A stretch of DNA of 14,195 nt from positions 1 through 14,195 of the forward strand of contig JAEOTE010000156.1 in the NCBI GenBank assembly GCA_016839945.1, in the 5' to 3' direction. The stretch is from Candidatus Heimdallarchaeota archaeon. Lineage in GTDB: Archaea; Asgardarchaeota; Heimdallarchaeia; Heimdallarchaeales; Heimdallarchaeaceae. Position numbers and translations under genes: made by a program. Below the pieces are notes generated by a model. The model saw only the letters and a program-made list of their open reading frames with translations. It was not told the origin of the DNA and ran no database searches. This document shows, piece after piece, positions 8,500 to 14,195 of the stretch. Position 1 is the stretch's first letter; the number at the start of each line of letters is the position of its first letter.

Positions 8500-9066
8500 G
8501 TGAGCCAGAGAATATTCAAAATCACCTTGTTGGGTGAAGGTGCAGTTGGCAAAACTTCTATAAGAAGAACATATCTAGGGGAAAGTTTCAAGGAGGGGTA
8601 TATGATGACAATTGGAGCTGATTTTGCGGTTCAAAAAATGACACATAATAATACCGAATATACTTTGCAAATTTGGGATTTAGCTGGTCAACAAAGATTT
8701 TCCGCAGTTCGTGAGGTCTACTATCGAGGAACTGCTGGAGCATTATTAGTCTTTGATGTTTCACGACCTGAAACTTATGAGATTCTTCCTAATTGGTTGC
8801 ATGAATTAATTCGTAATAATAAGAACCGCATTGTTCCTATTGTACTTATTGGAAACAAAGCTGATCTTCGTGATTCTACACCTTATTCCGTTCCTATCAA
8901 TTATGCTCAAGAGTATGCTGATCAACTTTCTGAATGGTCAGGATTTTATGTTCCATACATTGAGACTTCTGCTAAAACTGGATTAAATGTAGAAAAAGTA
9001 TTTCAAGTTCTTACTGAGAATATTTCTTCGTATTTTGAAAGAATGCTTATTGAAGAATATAAATAG
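8500..9066 (+). CDS. Rab-like small GTPase (Asgard eukaryotic-signature type)
   Basis: G1 GEGAVGKT, G2 TIGADF, G3 WDLAGQ, G4 NKAD, G5 ETSAK. RabF-like motifs IGADF, TLQIW, RFSAV, YYRG, LVFDVS. No C-terminal cysteines. Confidence 0.95.
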   Translation: MSQRIFKITLLGEGAVGKTSIRRTYLGESFKEGYMMTIGADFAVQKMTHNNTEYTLQIWDLAGQQRFSAVREVYYRGTAGALLVFDVSRPETYEILPNWLHELIRNNKNRIVPIVLIGNKADLRDSTPYSVPINYAQEYADQLSEWSGFYVPYIETSAKTGLNVEKVFQVLTENISSYFERMLIEEYK

Positions 9067-9167
9067 CTATACTATCCTCTTCTTTTTTTCTTGTTAGTTG
9101 ACCCTATCTTCTACAGAAATAGATTTTTATTCTCTTTCTCTTTTTCATATATAGAGTAGGGATTAAC

Positions 9168-9668
9168 GTGATTGATCTTCAGGAATTCATTTCATACCTT
9201 TCCGATCATGATTTCACTCTTTCTTCAGGTGTTCCTTGTTCTTATTTCAAGGATCTGTTAATCAACTTAGAAAAAGATCCTGATATCTACTATGTCCCAG
9301 CTACTCGTGAAGATGAAGCTGTTGGTATAGCTTCTGGCTATTTCTTAGGAGATGGCAAGAAAAGCTTCCTTATCATGCAAAATTCCGGTTTAGCTAATAT
9401 TGGAGATGCTCTAACCTCACTAGCTCAATTGTACAAGATCCCTATATTATTATTTGTAAGTTATAGAGGATTAGAACCCGACAATGATTTCCCTGAGCAT
9501 TCAATCATGGGTGAAGTTACAGAAAGTGTACTTGAAGCATATAAAGTTCCATATTGGAATCTTGAAGAAAGTAATTGGATAAAAACTCTTGATTTAGCCA
9601 TTAATAAAATGGATAAGACTTCATTACCTGTGTGCTTACTTGTAGAAAAAGGAGTGCTAAGCGAATGA
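9168..9668 (+). CDS. comD: Sulfopyruvate/phosphonopyruvate decarboxylase alpha subunit (ComD-like, ThDP N-terminal domain)
   Basis: GVPCS, PATREDEAVGIASG, MQNSGLAN, IPILLFVSYRG and IMG motifs. Substrate is not resolved from sequence. Confidence 0.78.
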   Translation: MIDLQEFISYLSDHDFTLSSGVPCSYFKDLLINLEKDPDIYYVPATREDEAVGIASGYFLGDGKKSFLIMQNSGLANIGDALTSLAQLYKIPILLFVSYRGLEPDNDFPEHSIMGEVTESVLEAYKVPYWNLEESNWIKTLDLAINKMDKTSLPVCLLVEKGVLSE

Positions 9669-10231
9669 AAGGTGCTGAAGTAATTTCCAAGCTGAATAAT
9701 GTTCTTTCTGGAGAGGAATTGATTGTCAGTTCCAATGGCAATGTTAGTCGTCAAGCATTCCATTTACTCCCTCAACCTCAGCTCTACCTTAGAGGTAGTA
9801 TGGGTCTTCCTGTTCCTGTAGGTTTAGGTTTAGCTATAGCATTACCAGGAAAAGACATTATCGTTTTGACGGGAGATGGAAATTTCTTAATGGGATTGAG
9901 TTCCATGGCAACTGTAGCTTTTCTTAAACCACTGAATCTCAAAATCATCATTTTGGATAATGAACTTTATTCAACTACAGGAGGACAAGAAACAGTCTCT
10001 TCTAACATGGGTTATTTGGAACTTGTTTTGGGGATGGGTGTTCAAAACATCAATTCGATAGATTCCATAGAAAAAGAAGATGTTATAGAGAAGATTCTTT
10101 CCGATACAATAAAAGATCCAGGTCTGCAAGTTTTACATATAAAGGTTGAAGAAGATACTATTAACTTGGAGAACATTCCCTGGCATCCAGTTGAGATCAA
10201 AGAACGATTCTTGAAACAACTAGACATTTAG
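9665..10231 (+). CDS. comE: Sulfopyruvate/phosphonopyruvate decarboxylase beta subunit (ComE-like, ThDP C-terminal domain)
   Basis: ATGA overlap with the comD stop (ATG 9665). GSMG, GLGLAIA, GDGNFLM...ILDN (ThDP motif) and TGGQET are present. Confidence 0.78.
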   Translation: MKGAEVISKLNNVLSGEELIVSSNGNVSRQAFHLLPQPQLYLRGSMGLPVPVGLGLAIALPGKDIIVLTGDGNFLMGLSSMATVAFLKPLNLKIIILDNELYSTTGGQETVSSNMGYLELVLGMGVQNINSIDSIEKEDVIEKILSDTIKDPGLQVLHIKVEEDTINLENIPWHPVEIKERFLKQLDI

Positions 10232-10250
10232 ATTTAGTTGGAAGGTAGAA

Positions 10251-10258
10251 CTTAAATA
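10251..10258 (+). promoter_or_regulatory. TATA box for a probably leaderless MoaD/SAMP transcript
   Basis: CTTAAATA ends 23 bp before ATG 10281, the expected spacing if transcription starts at the ATG. No SD is visible. Confidence 0.5.
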
Positions 10259-10280
10259 TTTTTTAACATAGAAATAATCA

Positions 10281-10562
10281 ATGAAGATCAATGTTCAATG
10301 CTTTGGACAAGTAAGATCAATAACAAAAGAAGCGATTGTGTCTATAGATATTCCAGATAAAATTTCTATTGTTAAAGCGTTAGATATTTTTGTTCAAAGT
10401 TTTGGGGAAGAAATGGAAAAAATCCTCTATAGTGATGGAAAGCTTAGAAAATTCTATTTCATTCAAGTGGATAAGAAAAATGTAGAACATGAAGAATTAG
10501 ATGATTTTATTCTCGAAGATGCTCAAACAGTATCTATTATTCCTTTTGTAGCAGGTGGATAA
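10281..10562 (+). CDS. MoaD/ThiS/SAMP-family ubiquitin-like sulfur carrier
   Basis: 93 aa, MKINVQCFG start, C-terminal VSIIPFVAGG di-glycine. Confidence 0.92.
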   Translation: MKINVQCFGQVRSITKEAIVSIDIPDKISIVKALDIFVQSFGEEMEKILYSDGKLRKFYFIQVDKKNVEHEELDDFILEDAQTVSIIPFVAGG

Positions 10563-10577
10563 ATTTTCTACAAGATA

Positions 10578-10657
10578 TAAATAAAAGAAGATGGAGGGAA
10601 GCTAGCAAAAAAATGATAGTGGGTGGATAATAATTATGAAGACTTTTGGCTAGCTTC
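10578..10657 (-). ncRNA. Candidate ~80-nt sRNA (or bidirectional terminator hairpin)
   Basis: Stem 10598-10611 / 10644-10657 (13 of 14 pairs; GAAGCTAGC/GCTAGCTTC). TTTATATA on the - strand at 10686-10679 puts a TSS at about the first base of the stem. Pyrimidine/U-rich 3' tail. Confidence 0.4.
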
Positions 10658-10716
10658 AAAGGATTGGTTATATGAAAGTATATAAACTCAACAATTTTCA
10701 AAGGTTATTTTCAAAA

Positions 10717-11082
10717 TTAAGCATAAGGATTTATTTCTGAATACTTTCGGATTATTTCCTTCTTTTCTTTGATATCTTCCTCTTTATGTTCTATATCACA
10801 AACATTTTTCTCTTTTAGTTCTCCTTCTTCGAAAACTGTTACTTTAGCTAATTGAATGAAGTTCTCATCATCAACAAAAATCTTCCCTGTTGCCTTTAAA
10901 TCTTCGATACCAAGAAGTATACGTTGATAATCTGTTAGAAGGTTATTATCATGCTTTATTAAATCGAATAGATCATCTATTTTGATCTTTCCTTTTTCTT
11001 TTAGAATCTTCTCTAAATTGGTCTTAAAGGATTCTTTTGCCGCTCTTTGCACTTCTTTCGTATCGCCCCAAACTATTGCCAT
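10717..11082 (-). CDS. Hypothetical protein, possible winged-helix domain
   Basis: LEKILKEKGKIKIDDLFDLI...ILLGIEDLKATGKIFVDDENFIQL fits a helix-strand-helix-helix-wing pattern; charged tail. Confidence 0.7.
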   Translation of the reverse strand: MAIVWGDTKEVQRAAKESFKTNLEKILKEKGKIKIDDLFDLIKHDNNLLTDYQRILLGIEDLKATGKIFVDDENFIQLAKVTVFEEGELKEKNVCDIEHKEEDIKEKKEIIRKYSEINPYA

Positions 11083-11203
11083 GCCAAATCAAACAAAAAG
11101 AGAGTTAAGACTATTTAAACAAAAAAGAGAGGTCAGTGAAAGTATTATAATAATGAAAAAGAAACTGAAATCAAGAAATGAAGTGATTTGTTTTACAGTC
11201 TTC

Positions 11204-12145
11204 TTATCTCTTTCTTTTTTCCTTTCTTCTTTGTTTTTCCCTCTTTAACCTTTCTTTCTTATATTTCTTTAACATGAGTTTGTCTAATTGTTCATCTGTT
11301 AAATTTGGAGGATTTAATAGAGGTTCAGGATTTTCTATTAATTCTTTAAAAAGCTCAATTGTTGGACCAGTATAGATTCCTGGTGCTATTCTATCATCTA
11401 TAGTTACCTTTAATTCCATTATTTTGCGAATATCAACCTTTTCAGTTTCTTCATCTATAACTTGAATTTTACGTATTTTTCCTAATGTTATTAAAACACC
11501 TGTTGTTCCAAATTCAAAGAGATGATGATATACTGCTGGAATTCCTATTGAACCCAAATGAGCAATGAATGCAGTAGAAAACATTGGTATATCTTTGGTA
11601 AGTGCATAAATTGGTATGTTGTGTTCATCTGTCCATCTCATGAACCAGAACATGAATCTAATAACAAACCTAGGCATTGCTCCCCAGAATTTAATATCTT
11701 TTTCATTTGGGTTTACTCCATGTCTAGCTTCGTAGAGATGTTCATTTACAATATTCTGGACTGTTTCCAATGTATCAAAGGGATCAAACTCAATCATGGC
11801 GTTTATTTCTTCCCCATCTTCTGATTTTTCTTTATTGACAACAAAAGAAATAATAATCTGATTTCGTTGCCATAATCTCCTTCCAGATACGAAACGGTTA
11901 ATTTTAGGACGTAAAGCTGATGTTCTAACACCTGCTGCTAGATATATCTGAAATAGTGTTAATTTATCTTCTTCATTCTTACCGTTGTTGTATTTTTCTA
12001 GGAATTTGTATGTATTAGTAAGATCCACCTGTGTTTTGTAGAAAATTTCACTTGATGATTTCCTAGGCATTATGTAAAATTCCATTTCATGAAATTTTGA
12101 GGTTTTAACCAATTCTGCATCAGGTCTTCTTGGCATGTTTTTCAC
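11204..12145 (-). CDS. Stand-alone 2-oxoacid dehydrogenase E2-like acyltransferase catalytic domain (no lipoyl domain)
   Basis: RPKINRFVSGRRLWQRN, STAFIAHLGSIG, VYHHLFEFGT, ITLGKI and TIDDRIAPG (at the DHRxxDG position). Start is GTG 12145 or ATG 12136. Confidence 0.85.
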   Translation of the reverse strand: MKNMPRRPDAELVKTSKFHEMEFYIMPRKSSSEIFYKTQVDLTNTYKFLEKYNNGKNEEDKLTLFQIYLAAGVRTSALRPKINRFVSGRRLWQRNQIIISFVVNKEKSEDGEEINAMIEFDPFDTLETVQNIVNEHLYEARHGVNPNEKDIKFWGAMPRFVIRFMFWFMRWTDEHNIPIYALTKDIPMFSTAFIAHLGSIGIPAVYHHLFEFGTTGVLITLGKIRKIQVIDEETEKVDIRKIMELKVTIDDRIAPGIYTGPTIELFKELIENPEPLLNPPNLTDEQLDKLMLKKYKKERLKREKQRRKEKRKR

Positions 12146-12566
12146 ATCTGCTTTGATAAATAAAGTACTTCTGTATGATTTATGGTTGTTTTTAACTTTT
12201 TCCAGAAAAATGAATTTTTTTGAATAATATATTCAATATAATCAAAATCTGATAGTGCGTACTAAGTTTTATTGTAATTAAGATCAATCCTATTTGTAGA
12301 ATTTTATCAATTTTTCACAATTGATTTTTAAAATAGCGCTTAAATCTCTTGTTTTTAGGTTTTAAAAACTTAAGCTTTTTTTTATATAAATAAGAAATTG
12401 GGATTAAAATAAAATATATTTAGCTTAAATAATATTTTTTTGAAAATAAAAAAGTTTTAGCTATAAATTTTATTATATTAAAGAAAAAAAAATTGAGGTA
12501 AAAATTGCCGAAATATTGCCCAGATGATACCAAAAAACATACGTGTACAGTATAAGGAGAATATAT

Positions 12567-12582
12567 AGATTCTTAAGAATCT
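12567..12582. promoter_or_regulatory. Perfect 16-bp palindrome, candidate operator
   Basis: AGATTCTTAAGAATCT. Confidence 0.45.
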
Positions 12583-12665
12583 TACCGACATAAAAAATTG
12601 ATCCAAGAAAAAAGTGAAATTTTCACCGCTTGTAGCTTAAGTTTTTAGGAGTTTCAAGAGGTAAA

Positions 12666-12710
12666 TGTTACAATTTTCCAGATTTTCTCTTCTGGTGGAA
12701 AAAAGTAACA
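12666..12710. promoter_or_regulatory. Long inverted repeat abutting the BRE/TATA of the peptide gene, candidate operator
   Basis: TGTTAC-aa-TTTTCCA (12666-12680), N15, TGGAAAA-aa-GTAACA (12696-12710); 13 of 15 positions complementary. Confidence 0.5.
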
Positions 12711-12713
12711 ATA

Positions 12714-12763
12714 TTTAAATAGAAGATGAAAAAGTGTAATCTTGAGCTTTATTGGCTGGTGGA
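12714..12763 (+). promoter_or_regulatory. TATA box (TTTAAATA 12714-12721), predicted TSS about 12744, and SD (GGTGGA 12758-12763) of the repeat-peptide gene
   Basis: Canonical archaeal spacing; the SD lies 8 nt before ATG 12772. Confidence 0.6.
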
Positions 12764-12771
12764 TAATAGAA

Positions 12772-13002
12772 ATGAAAAGTAAAACTAAGAAATTACTTGG
12801 CGTATTATTTGTAGTATCATTTATTGGAATAACAGCAAGTGTGATCGCTTGTGCAGGTCCAACAGGTGGATATCCTGATGAACCCTTAGGTCATACTGCA
12901 GGTCCAACAGGTGGATATCCTGATGAACCCTTAGGTCATACTGCAGGTCCAGACGGGGGATATCCAGACGAACCGATTAGTCATACTCGAATATATGTAT
13001 AA
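12772..13002 (+). CDS. 76-aa secreted precursor peptide with three tandem 15-aa cores
   Basis: MKSKTKKLLGVLFVVSFIGITASVIAC + AGPTGGYPDEPLGHT x2 + AGPDGGYPDEPISHT + RIYV. Good SD and TATA. Copy 3 carries four synonymous codon changes, which supports coding status. Confidence 0.85.
   Translation: MKSKTKKLLGVLFVVSFIGITASVIACAGPTGGYPDEPLGHTAGPTGGYPDEPLGHTAGPDGGYPDEPISHTRIYV
12852..12986 (+). repeat. 3 x 45-bp tandem repeat (coding)
   Basis: 12852-12896 and 12897-12941 are identical; 12942-12986 is diverged. Confidence 0.97.
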
Positions 13003-13045
13003 TGTGTAAAAAAATTCATGCTGACGTGAAATAATCGCCAGAAAA

Positions 13046-13400
13046 ACCCCACCCCTTTCCTCGGCGAGAGAAGGAAACCTGGGGCGTCTTAGAGAGGTCA
13101 TAGACGCCCATTAGGTTTTCATAAGGGGTGATATCCACAAGCAAATAGAACTCAAGCAAGGGGTAAAAAACGGGTCAAACCGAAAAAAAACTTTCGAGGT
13201 CTATAACTGAGAGAAATCCTACGAAGGCAGAAATCCTTGGGGATTTTTCATAGAGATCTTGTACAGAGTTCGCTACGTTGAATCTACGTGCAGGTTCTCC
13301 TGATCGAATTCTGTACGCTTGATCTCTTTGTCAGTTTATCTATCTTGACCCTACAATCTATCTATCCACCAACCAACCATAGAAATATGGGGGTCAAAAA
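13046..13400 (+). ncRNA. Large structured non-coding RNA / cis-regulatory leader of unrecognised family
   Basis: At least 10 nested helices found by eye, e.g. 13050-57/13123-30, 13073-81/13112-20, 13082-89/13102-09, 13172-78/13345-51, 13205-10/13331-36, 13252-58/13321-27, 13261-72/13305-16. G-U pairs work only on the + strand. Visibly GC-richer than other intergenic DNA here. Confidence 0.7.
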
Positions 13401-13401
13401 A

Positions 13402-14195
13402 ATGGAAAAACTTGAAAACATGACAAATTCAGACAAAAGAATACTGCAAATCTTGCAGAATTATCCACTAGAACCTTTTTCTTCAATGGCAAAGAGAGTG
13501 GAAATTTCTCCACAAACAATGATTCGAAGAGTAGAGAATCTAAAGAGTCGCAATATACTTCGCAATGCTATAGCCTCTTTCGTCCCTGAACGTATTGGTC
13601 TTACTAGATTTAGCGTTATTTTTGATATTTCTCAACTCCACCAGTTTACGCTTTTACAAAACGCTATTTCTGAACACAATTACATACGTGCATACAATCG
13701 ATTTTATGGCGAAAAGTTTGGCATACAAGCAAATTTCGATGTCCCAATGAATGTAAATGGAGTATTCACAAAATTCTTAGATTACTTAGTAAACGAAGAA
13801 TTCTGTGATGGTTATACCATATTCAAATCTAAAGGTCATCGTTTTTCTAAGCCAGCACCTATAACTATCTACAGTCAAGATCCAGAACCTTTTGATATCA
13901 TTTCATTCTGGCAAAAAAGAGTTAAAGCCAATTCTGAATTAAATGGTGTTAGAAGCGCTGTGACTGTTAAAAACGGAGAAATCATTATTGTGACTGATGA
14001 AGGAGAAAAACCCATTGAACCTTTACATCTAAGACTACTTCGAGATCTAACACGAGAAACTGCAAATGGACATAGGATTGGAATTCGCACACAACAAACA
14101 GAGCTAATTAATAACTACAGAGATCTGTATAAAAGCTTAGGTAAGAAAATAAGACTTACACCTTCAGAAGAGCACTTATTCAACAACCTTAGCGA
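13402..14195 (+). CDS. Lrp/AsnC-family winged-helix transcriptional regulator, probably tandem-domain (partial, more than 264 aa)
   Basis: Hand translation is open to the window end: MEKLENMTNSDKRILQILQNYPLEPFSSMAKRVEISPQTMIRRVENLKSRNILRNAIASFVPERIGL (Lrp HTH + linker), a RAM-like domain, then a second helix-1-like segment PIEPLHLRLLRDL. SD GGGGGT at 13389-13394. Alternative in-frame ATG at 13387. Confidence 0.88.
   Translation, partial: MEKLENMTNSDKRILQILQNYPLEPFSSMAKRVEISPQTMIRRVENLKSRNILRNAIASFVPERIGLTRFSVIFDISQLHQFTLLQNAISEHNYIRAYNRFYGEKFGIQANFDVPMNVNGVFTKFLDYLVNEEFCDGYTIFKSKGHRFSKPAPITIYSQDPEPFDIISFWQKRVKANSELNGVRSAVTVKNGEIIIVTDEGEKPIEPLHLRLLRDLTRETANGHRIGIRTQQTELINNYRDLYKSLGKKIRLTPSEEHLFNNLS

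Follow-up and report, generated by a model that had tools for sequence, protein, structure and literature searches.

The locus described here raises the question of whether the 5' leader of an archaeal messenger RNA pairs with a segment lying beyond its own coding sequence, and whether such pairing would shut off translation of the gene. Asgard archaea are the closest prokaryotic relatives of eukaryotes, and to our knowledge almost nothing is known of RNA-based gene control in them. In bacteria, full-length hok and aapA mRNAs are silenced by long-range 5'-3' pairing, which in hok/Sok takes the form of the fbi-tac fold-back. Masking of a leader by fold-back is known mainly from such bacterial toxin mRNAs, and we know of no control of this kind described in the Heimdallarchaeal lineage. 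The original prediction, made from the letters of the DNA, had proposed that the linker between two RNA domains is antisense to the leader of a small peptide gene situated upstream, and that the full-length transcript would keep the peptide untranslated until it is processed or refolded.

The locus and its distribution

The window, that is, the whole stretch of DNA analysed (14,195 nucleotides), is one whole contig of a 3.0-Mb genome bin with 32% G+C. It carries, in this order, the gene of a small signal-peptide repeat protein, a structured RNA of about 300 nt and the gene of a wHTH (AsnC-type) regulator. The two genes are placed as follows.

12772-13002, + strand: small protein gene, an ORF with tandem 45-nt repeats and with homologs throughout the genus
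13402-14195, + strand: 5' part of the wHTH (AsnC-type) gene, matched by Pfam HTH_AsnC-type and HTH_24, its synteny being found in all loci

The three-part order, on a single strand, was found in 18 Candidatus Heimdallarchaeota species genomes, all of one genus, and the locus is single-copy in each genome. All 13 complete loci have the same orientation and keep their synteny with the wHTH gene. The spacer between the genes is conserved and G+C-rich, leaving about 400 nt without an ORF downstream of the small protein gene. The pattern of the spacer signature gave one match per genome and was confined to the genus; a search of 59 other genomes of the class found it in none. A contig scan with the wHTH protein yielded no loci beyond those already collected, and a metagenome pattern scan returned 41 stretches, among them four true homologs and no new leader/site pair.

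The small protein of the window has 76 amino acids, arranged as a basic N-terminus, a hydrophobic helix and three 15-residue acidic repeats; its homologs keep the N-terminus, carry 3-8 variable repeats and reach 142 residues or more. A Pfam search with this protein gave no family match, and no match came from the protein atlas or from an exact-protein look-up of contigs. The tandem repeats (12852-12986 in the window) vary by species in unit sequence as well as in number, and assemblies often end within them (contig ends in G011, G013, G014, G015, G018 and G019). An N-terminal extension of the ORF through the leader was considered and rejected, as the leaders, read by eye, keep the frame open in two clades only and contain an in-frame stop elsewhere. 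The wHTH protein comprises about 450 amino acids in relatives, with the AsnC-type winged helix at its N-terminus. The last 540 nt of the window (13656-14195) overlap the end of contig C92 with 96.5% identity; hence the wHTH gene runs on into C92 and the contig break reflects strain variation. A Ras-family GTPase gene is also present in the window, in keeping with an Asgard archaeon.

The helix in the window

The two arms of the helix flank the small protein gene and the first domain of the structured RNA.

12741-12765, + strand: 5' arm, the whole 5' leader including the SD-like GGTGGA (12758-12763); pairing verified, leader conserved
13132-13156, + strand: site A, the 3' arm, a linker right after RNA domain 1; best partner of its cognate leader, with which it co-varies

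The pairing between 12741-12765 and 13132-13156 is exact as originally claimed, being ungapped and antiparallel with 21 Watson-Crick pairs, one G-U pair (U12749 with G13148) and three mismatches. The mismatches are all 1x1 (C12747/A13150, G12754/A13143 and G12758/A13139), and the helix has no extension on either flank. The arms are about 390 bases apart. Within 12300-14195 this helix is the top inverted repeat, and no other repeat in the whole window reaches 21 of 25 pairs with its arms 700 nt or less apart. An analytic, composition-based calculation leads one to expect 0.12 repeats of this quality in a window, and among 73 block-shuffled windows 10 contained a repeat of at least 21/25. That an equal repeat arises in 14% of shuffled windows would suit a chance match devoid of function. 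To judge from the window alone, the helix is indeed within chance, and it goes beyond chance only through its relatives.

Conservation and co-variation of the arms

The comparison of pairs was carried out on 15 genomes having both leader and RNA, two of which span a contig break in the repeats. Complementarity, on whose preservation in homologs the original prediction had staked itself, is kept: in 15/15 genomes the best downstream duplex of the leader is formed with the homologous linker, and the resulting helix measures 19-27 bp. The leader contains an invariant block around the SD. Elsewhere the arms differ among six clades, for instance at the helix centre, and the differences match on both sides. 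This matching was quantified by a swap test in which the leaders of each clade were paired with the sites of every clade, giving 720 assignments. The cognate assignment ranked first or second of the 720, and its rank was unchanged after the invariant SD block had been cut from the leaders. Compensatory changes in homologs, which the original prediction had named as a check, were found at 6 of 13 testable pairs of a MAFFT alignment of the helix, an alignment that has only the first 13 pairs in one register and in which two rows are misaligned. The paired cells amounted to 72%, against 66.5 +/- 1.5 in shuffles, none of 500 shuffles being as high, and dropped to about 45% when the partner was slid by one column. 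The z-scores of RNAduplex against shuffled leaders ranged from +0.7 to -4.6 and are weak because the G-rich leader matches the C-tract of domain 1 in any order; swap tests were used instead. Mismatches and bulges of the helix vary between clades, with one recurrent mismatch opposing a leader C to an A of site A, which would be a wobble pair on the opposite strand.

It is therefore very probable that the pairing is real and under selection. A fortuitous match is barely credible in the face of a homologous position in 15/15 genomes, of compensatory change and of the swap tests passed.

Selection on the arms could conceivably act at the DNA level, the arms being a looping operator pair, the crossover sites of an inverton or what decay has left of a mobile element's terminal repeats. 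Invertons and small transposons likewise have a gene set between inverted repeats, the gene of a DNA-binding regulator adjoins, and the recurrent C/A mismatch is neutral in DNA. Nevertheless, such a role is highly improbable. The inverted repeat has no second copy in its own genome, all 13 complete loci show one orientation, and no recombinase or transposase is present among the Pfam-scanned ORFs (8500-14193). The arms are imperfect, vary between species and tolerate bulges, unlike operator motifs or recombination cores; moreover, the likely operator of the promoter is another conserved palindrome, and the RNA that contains site A shows G-U covariation fitting the + strand. On these grounds of copy number, orientation and gene content a mobile element or inverton was rejected, and mobile-element ends were discarded for lack of the second copy.

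The structured RNA downstream

The spacer RNA on either side of site A contains the following elements.

13034-13131, + strand: RNA domain 1, made up of an invariant 5' block, an invariant C-tract and a long hairpin
13047-13055, + strand: invariant C-tract in domain 1, perfect complement of the leader's invariant GGTGG
13073-13120, + strand: long hairpin of domain 1 with a conserved GAGGTC loop, from per-sequence folds
13172-13181 and 13196-13203, + strand: two invariant blocks after site A, opening the second part of the RNA, in 18 genomes
13261-13316, + strand: long hairpin of RNA domain 2, an inverted repeat whose arms in relatives differ yet are complementary (by eye)

Four blocks of this RNA are invariant across 18 genomes. 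The hairpin of domain 1 is kept in 18/18 genomes with at least five different inner-stem sequences, both sides always matching. Read from the opposite strand, the G-U pairs of this hairpin would turn into A-C mismatches; hence the RNA strand is the + strand. Runs of A on the + strand are numerous and would terminate any long transcript of the - strand. Site A adjoins domain 1 on its 5' side and the next invariant block on its 3' side, so that its description as a linker between RNA domains was correct. The helix that closes the structure just 5' of site A has partners that differ by clade. RNAalifold, applied to the MAFFT alignment, recovered seven invariant pairs, a yield explained by an alignment that is not structure-consistent, and the hairpin was judged from per-sequence folds instead. 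Rfam searches of the whole window at gathering scores, and of 12400-13500 at E up to 10, returned nothing credible. A riboswitch or leader platform carrying an anti-SD was rejected, the structured RNA being downstream of the masked gene and lacking an Rfam riboswitch match.

Several minor features of this RNA deserve a record. The C-tract could also pair with the invariant G-run from 13172, which makes a three-way competition possible. Two conserved SD-like GAGGTC motifs are present, one in the hairpin loop (13094-13099) and the other in a single-stranded block (13196-13203); the second is followed, about 4-7 nt further on, by the ATG of a short ORF in 12 of 18 genomes, and by none in the window. 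Positions 13160-13171 hold an insertion of about 9 nt found in this genome only, which duplicates part of the invariant block following site A and misleads aligners.

Promoter, SD sequence and transcript ends

Whether the leader and site A belong to the same RNA depends on where transcription begins and ends. The promoter of the small protein gene contains the following element.

12714-12721, + strand: TATA box of the small protein gene, its position and sequence conserved in 15 genomes

A conserved upstream element is located behind the TATA box at about 12696-12710. A palindrome (12666-12710), conserved in the genus and unlike site A in sequence, adjoins the TATA box and is likely an operator. 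The usual archaeal spacing between TATA box and start would place the transcription start here at about 12742-12746, and consequently the first 1-4 pairs of the helix may fall outside the RNA. The helix had been said to cover the leader from the transcription start through the SD. This is plausible, GGTGGA being inside the arm; at the other end the coverage may fall short by those 1-4 pairs. GGTGGA can pair with the 3' end of the 16S rRNA (contig C157), and the genome uses SD sequences matching its own 16S 3' end with a modal position of -9 to -10. At -14, GGTGGA is 4-5 nt further upstream than the modal SD; we infer that it is functional. The 3' region of the 16S gene (contig C157, from about 447) shows a 32-nt insert between a conserved CTGCGG and the anti-SD end, perhaps a small expansion or an element resembling an intron.

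From the stop codon to 13132 no run of five or more T occurs in the window, nor in 12 of 17 relatives. Clade C has a T5 run about 15-20 nt before site A that could end some transcripts. Depletion of T-runs was rejected as evidence for read-through, since low local T content explains their scarcity and renders it weak evidence.

These observations bear on the reading in which the structured RNA, made or processed independently as a small RNA or as the wHTH mRNA's 5' UTR, uses site A in trans as an antisense seed on the leaders of separate peptide mRNAs. The position of site A, in a linker flanked by domains that fold stably and covary, is typical of a seed, and conserved complementarity is equally expected from pairing in trans. 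The T5 run of clade C could split the two RNAs, an A-rich, TATA-like sequence is found upstream of domain 1, and the c4-type design provides an established precedent. However, no conserved promoter can be placed in front of domain 1, where the region is merely AT-rich and cannot be aligned, no Rfam match, c4 or other, was obtained, and the intramolecular helix is predicted with near-unit probability if the RNAs are joined. Action in trans is considered unlikely.

Predicted folding and masking of the SD

For each of 13 species, the putative RNA beginning at about the expected start and ending shortly after site A (407-679 nt) was folded. The minimum free energy (MFE) fold contains the helix in 13/13 species, and the pairs expected from the ensemble come close to the MFE counts. 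In the window RNA the helix closes both the MFE and the centroid structures, the fold having z = -5.65 against shuffles, and the pairing probability of leader and site A is about 0.9-1.0 in the predicted ensemble; in these folds the helix is thermodynamically dominant. A series of 3' truncations was used to follow the state of the SD as the RNA lengthens. In RNAs ending in or after the ORF, three clades show a probability of 0.8-1.0 that the SD is unpaired, and this genome one of about 0.3-0.4; when site A is included, the probability falls to 0.0-0.3.

The SD-like GGTGGA is covered by the site A helix in five of six clades. In the sixth clade, site A stops just 5' of the SD, and the SD is predicted to be paired with the invariant C-tract of domain 1, a pairing that is predicted already before site A is made. 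The existence of two predicted routes to the masking of the SD points to selection for masking, and provides the strongest case for regarding translation, and not structure alone, as what is under selection. The claim that the full-length RNA shuts off peptide translation is accordingly supported in part: in the predicted folds the SD is masked as proposed, and the clade whose site A falls short of the SD departs from the proposed arrangement; release by processing or refolding is conjectural.

In the mechanism outlined here, transcription from the promoter of the small protein gene most likely continues beyond the stop codon and into the structured RNA. Site A, once made, would capture the whole leader, from about its first base to GGTGGA, in a helix of some 20-25 bp closing a loop of 370-600 nt. 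The ribosome-binding site would be free in the nascent RNA and masked in the completed long RNA, and each long transcript would give a short burst of translation or none. The helix would also bury the 5' end and offer a double-stranded stretch that could be cut by the cell's own RNase III. This scheme supposes that both arms would be carried by one transcript and that masking would lower translation. Our preferred reading is that the arms are a selected RNA-RNA helix on the + strand, which probably lets the long transcript shut its own gene off; that the helix acts within one transcript to mask the leader, we consider about as likely as not. As a counterpoint, coupled archaeal translation could begin before site A exists.

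The presence of a double-stranded stretch brings in another reading, namely that the helix is mainly a processing or decay site, where RNase III, by cutting read-through RNA, separates the leader and the ORF and releases the downstream RNA together with the regulator mRNA. The range of helix lengths in known RNase III substrates includes 19-27 bp. A gene of the RNase III family scores above the Pfam cut-off at C21:8448-8810, and was likewise found in 20 of 24 genus members, as well as in sister genera with closed genomes; the archaeal genomes that served as controls gave no match. RNase III genes in Asgard archaea have been sought by others (bioRxiv 10.1101/2023.12.14.571608). Leader-trailer processing helices are reported for precursors of rRNA (PMC11404451), and the helix studied here resembles them in being a long-range covarying helix that brackets a functional unit; it differs in that the unit consists of a protein-coding ORF and an RNA domain. 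Since RNase III is encoded, cleavage of the helix is a live alternative and could also come on top of masking. As the main function it is distinctly unlikely: masking of the SD, for which two routes are predicted, would be superfluous in a pure cleavage site, the mismatches and bulges differ by clade, and the bulge-helix-bulge motif of the archaeal splicing endonuclease is absent. The latter motif (two 3-nt bulges on opposite strands, 4 bp apart) was rejected as a candidate, the window helix having 1x1 mismatches only and the bulges of relatives varying in place and size.

Returning to masking within the long transcript, the structured RNA might in addition be a downstream sensor for a protein or ligand, perhaps the wHTH protein, or the ribosome through the exposed SD-like loops, which frees site A and the C-tract or keeps them bound, in the manner of a 'retro-riboswitch'. 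We regard this extension as rather improbable, and we are aware of no archaeal example of control of this class. If true, it would couple the output of a secreted multi-repeat peptide to the expression of the adjacent regulator in an Asgard archaeon.

Comparison with known systems

The closest geometry is that of the type I toxin mRNAs. In the aapA1/IsoA1 system of Helicobacter pylori, the full-length aapA1 mRNA has its SD sequestered by its own fold until 3' processing takes place (PMC5416894). As in hok and aapA1, the 5' end of the mRNA would here pair far downstream within the same RNA; the full-length RNA is predicted to have its SD sequestered, and the nascent or shortened RNA to be open. 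The present system differs from those in its host, an Asgard archaeon, and in its product, a repeat protein of 76-142 or more residues that is secreted or anchored, instead of a hydrophobic toxin of less than about 60; moreover, the 3' arm is located inside a conserved structured RNA of about 300 nt leading to a regulator gene, not at the 3' end of a short mRNA. We know of no antisense antitoxin RNA for the small protein gene. The type I toxin analogy that accompanied the original prediction fails beyond geometry, as the product is not toxin-like in its length, its acidic repeats and its absence of a Pfam match. The locus is not a member of the type I toxin family, and the likeness is one of geometry only.

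Two phage systems share other traits. Expression of lambda int is retroregulated by the downstream sib element, in which the RNase III site is formed only in read-through RNA. As in sib, the element is downstream of the gene, is present in longer transcripts only and would lower expression, with a double-stranded stretch and an RNase III gene at hand; unlike the helix with the 5' leader described here, sib is a local hairpin. The c4 antisense RNA of phages P1/P7 and the CI RNA of P4 (Rfam RF01695) are transcribed from the same strand as their targets, which are in their own operon. The present locus resembles them in having a same-strand structured RNA with a short complement of a ribosome-binding region in its own operon, and differs in that the phage targets flank both sides of a processed RNA of about 77 nt. 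There is no sequence similarity to that family, and its covariance model (RF01695) gave no match, whether the gathering score or E up to 10 was applied.

The nearest archaeal precedent is found in haloarchaea, where translational control requires the 5' UTR and the 3' UTR in combination (Brenneis and Soppa 2009, PMC2636863). It is a precedent in that a sequence following the ORF and the 5' UTR jointly govern translation; in the haloarchaeal case no direct pairing is defined, the organisms are others, and most mRNAs do not rely on an SD.

The locus is compact and combines a long-range helix of covarying arms, expected to hide a ribosome-binding site, with a previously undescribed structured RNA, in genomes that also encode RNase III. 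If the proposed reading is true, the fold-back mode of translational control documented in mRNAs of bacterial toxins and phages would extend to an ordinary secreted-protein gene in Heimdallarchaeia, and the locus would provide a handle on the communication between 5' and 3' regions in archaeal mRNAs.

Lineage-specific elements and sister genera

A second segment complementary to the leader is present near the 3' end of the spacer.

13357-13376, + strand: site B, second, lineage-specific complement of the leader, strong in this genome and in G005

The duplex of site B with the leader has a predicted energy of -28.7 kcal/mol here and -24.1 kcal/mol in G005 (the same motif occurs in G018), and falls to background elsewhere; site B is accordingly lineage-specific or convergent.

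In sister genera the gene pair is kept with a different spacer sequence, and no consistent leader-spacer helix of comparable kind was found there; the helix is restricted to one uncultured genus. In the sister genus g2 (L087, L090 and L091), the spacer between the genes of the small secreted protein and the wHTH protein consists of three repeats, each made up of a short hairpin, a C-rich motif containing the complement of GGTG and then a long hairpin. This grammar may be related to that of the RNA described here, despite the differing sequence.
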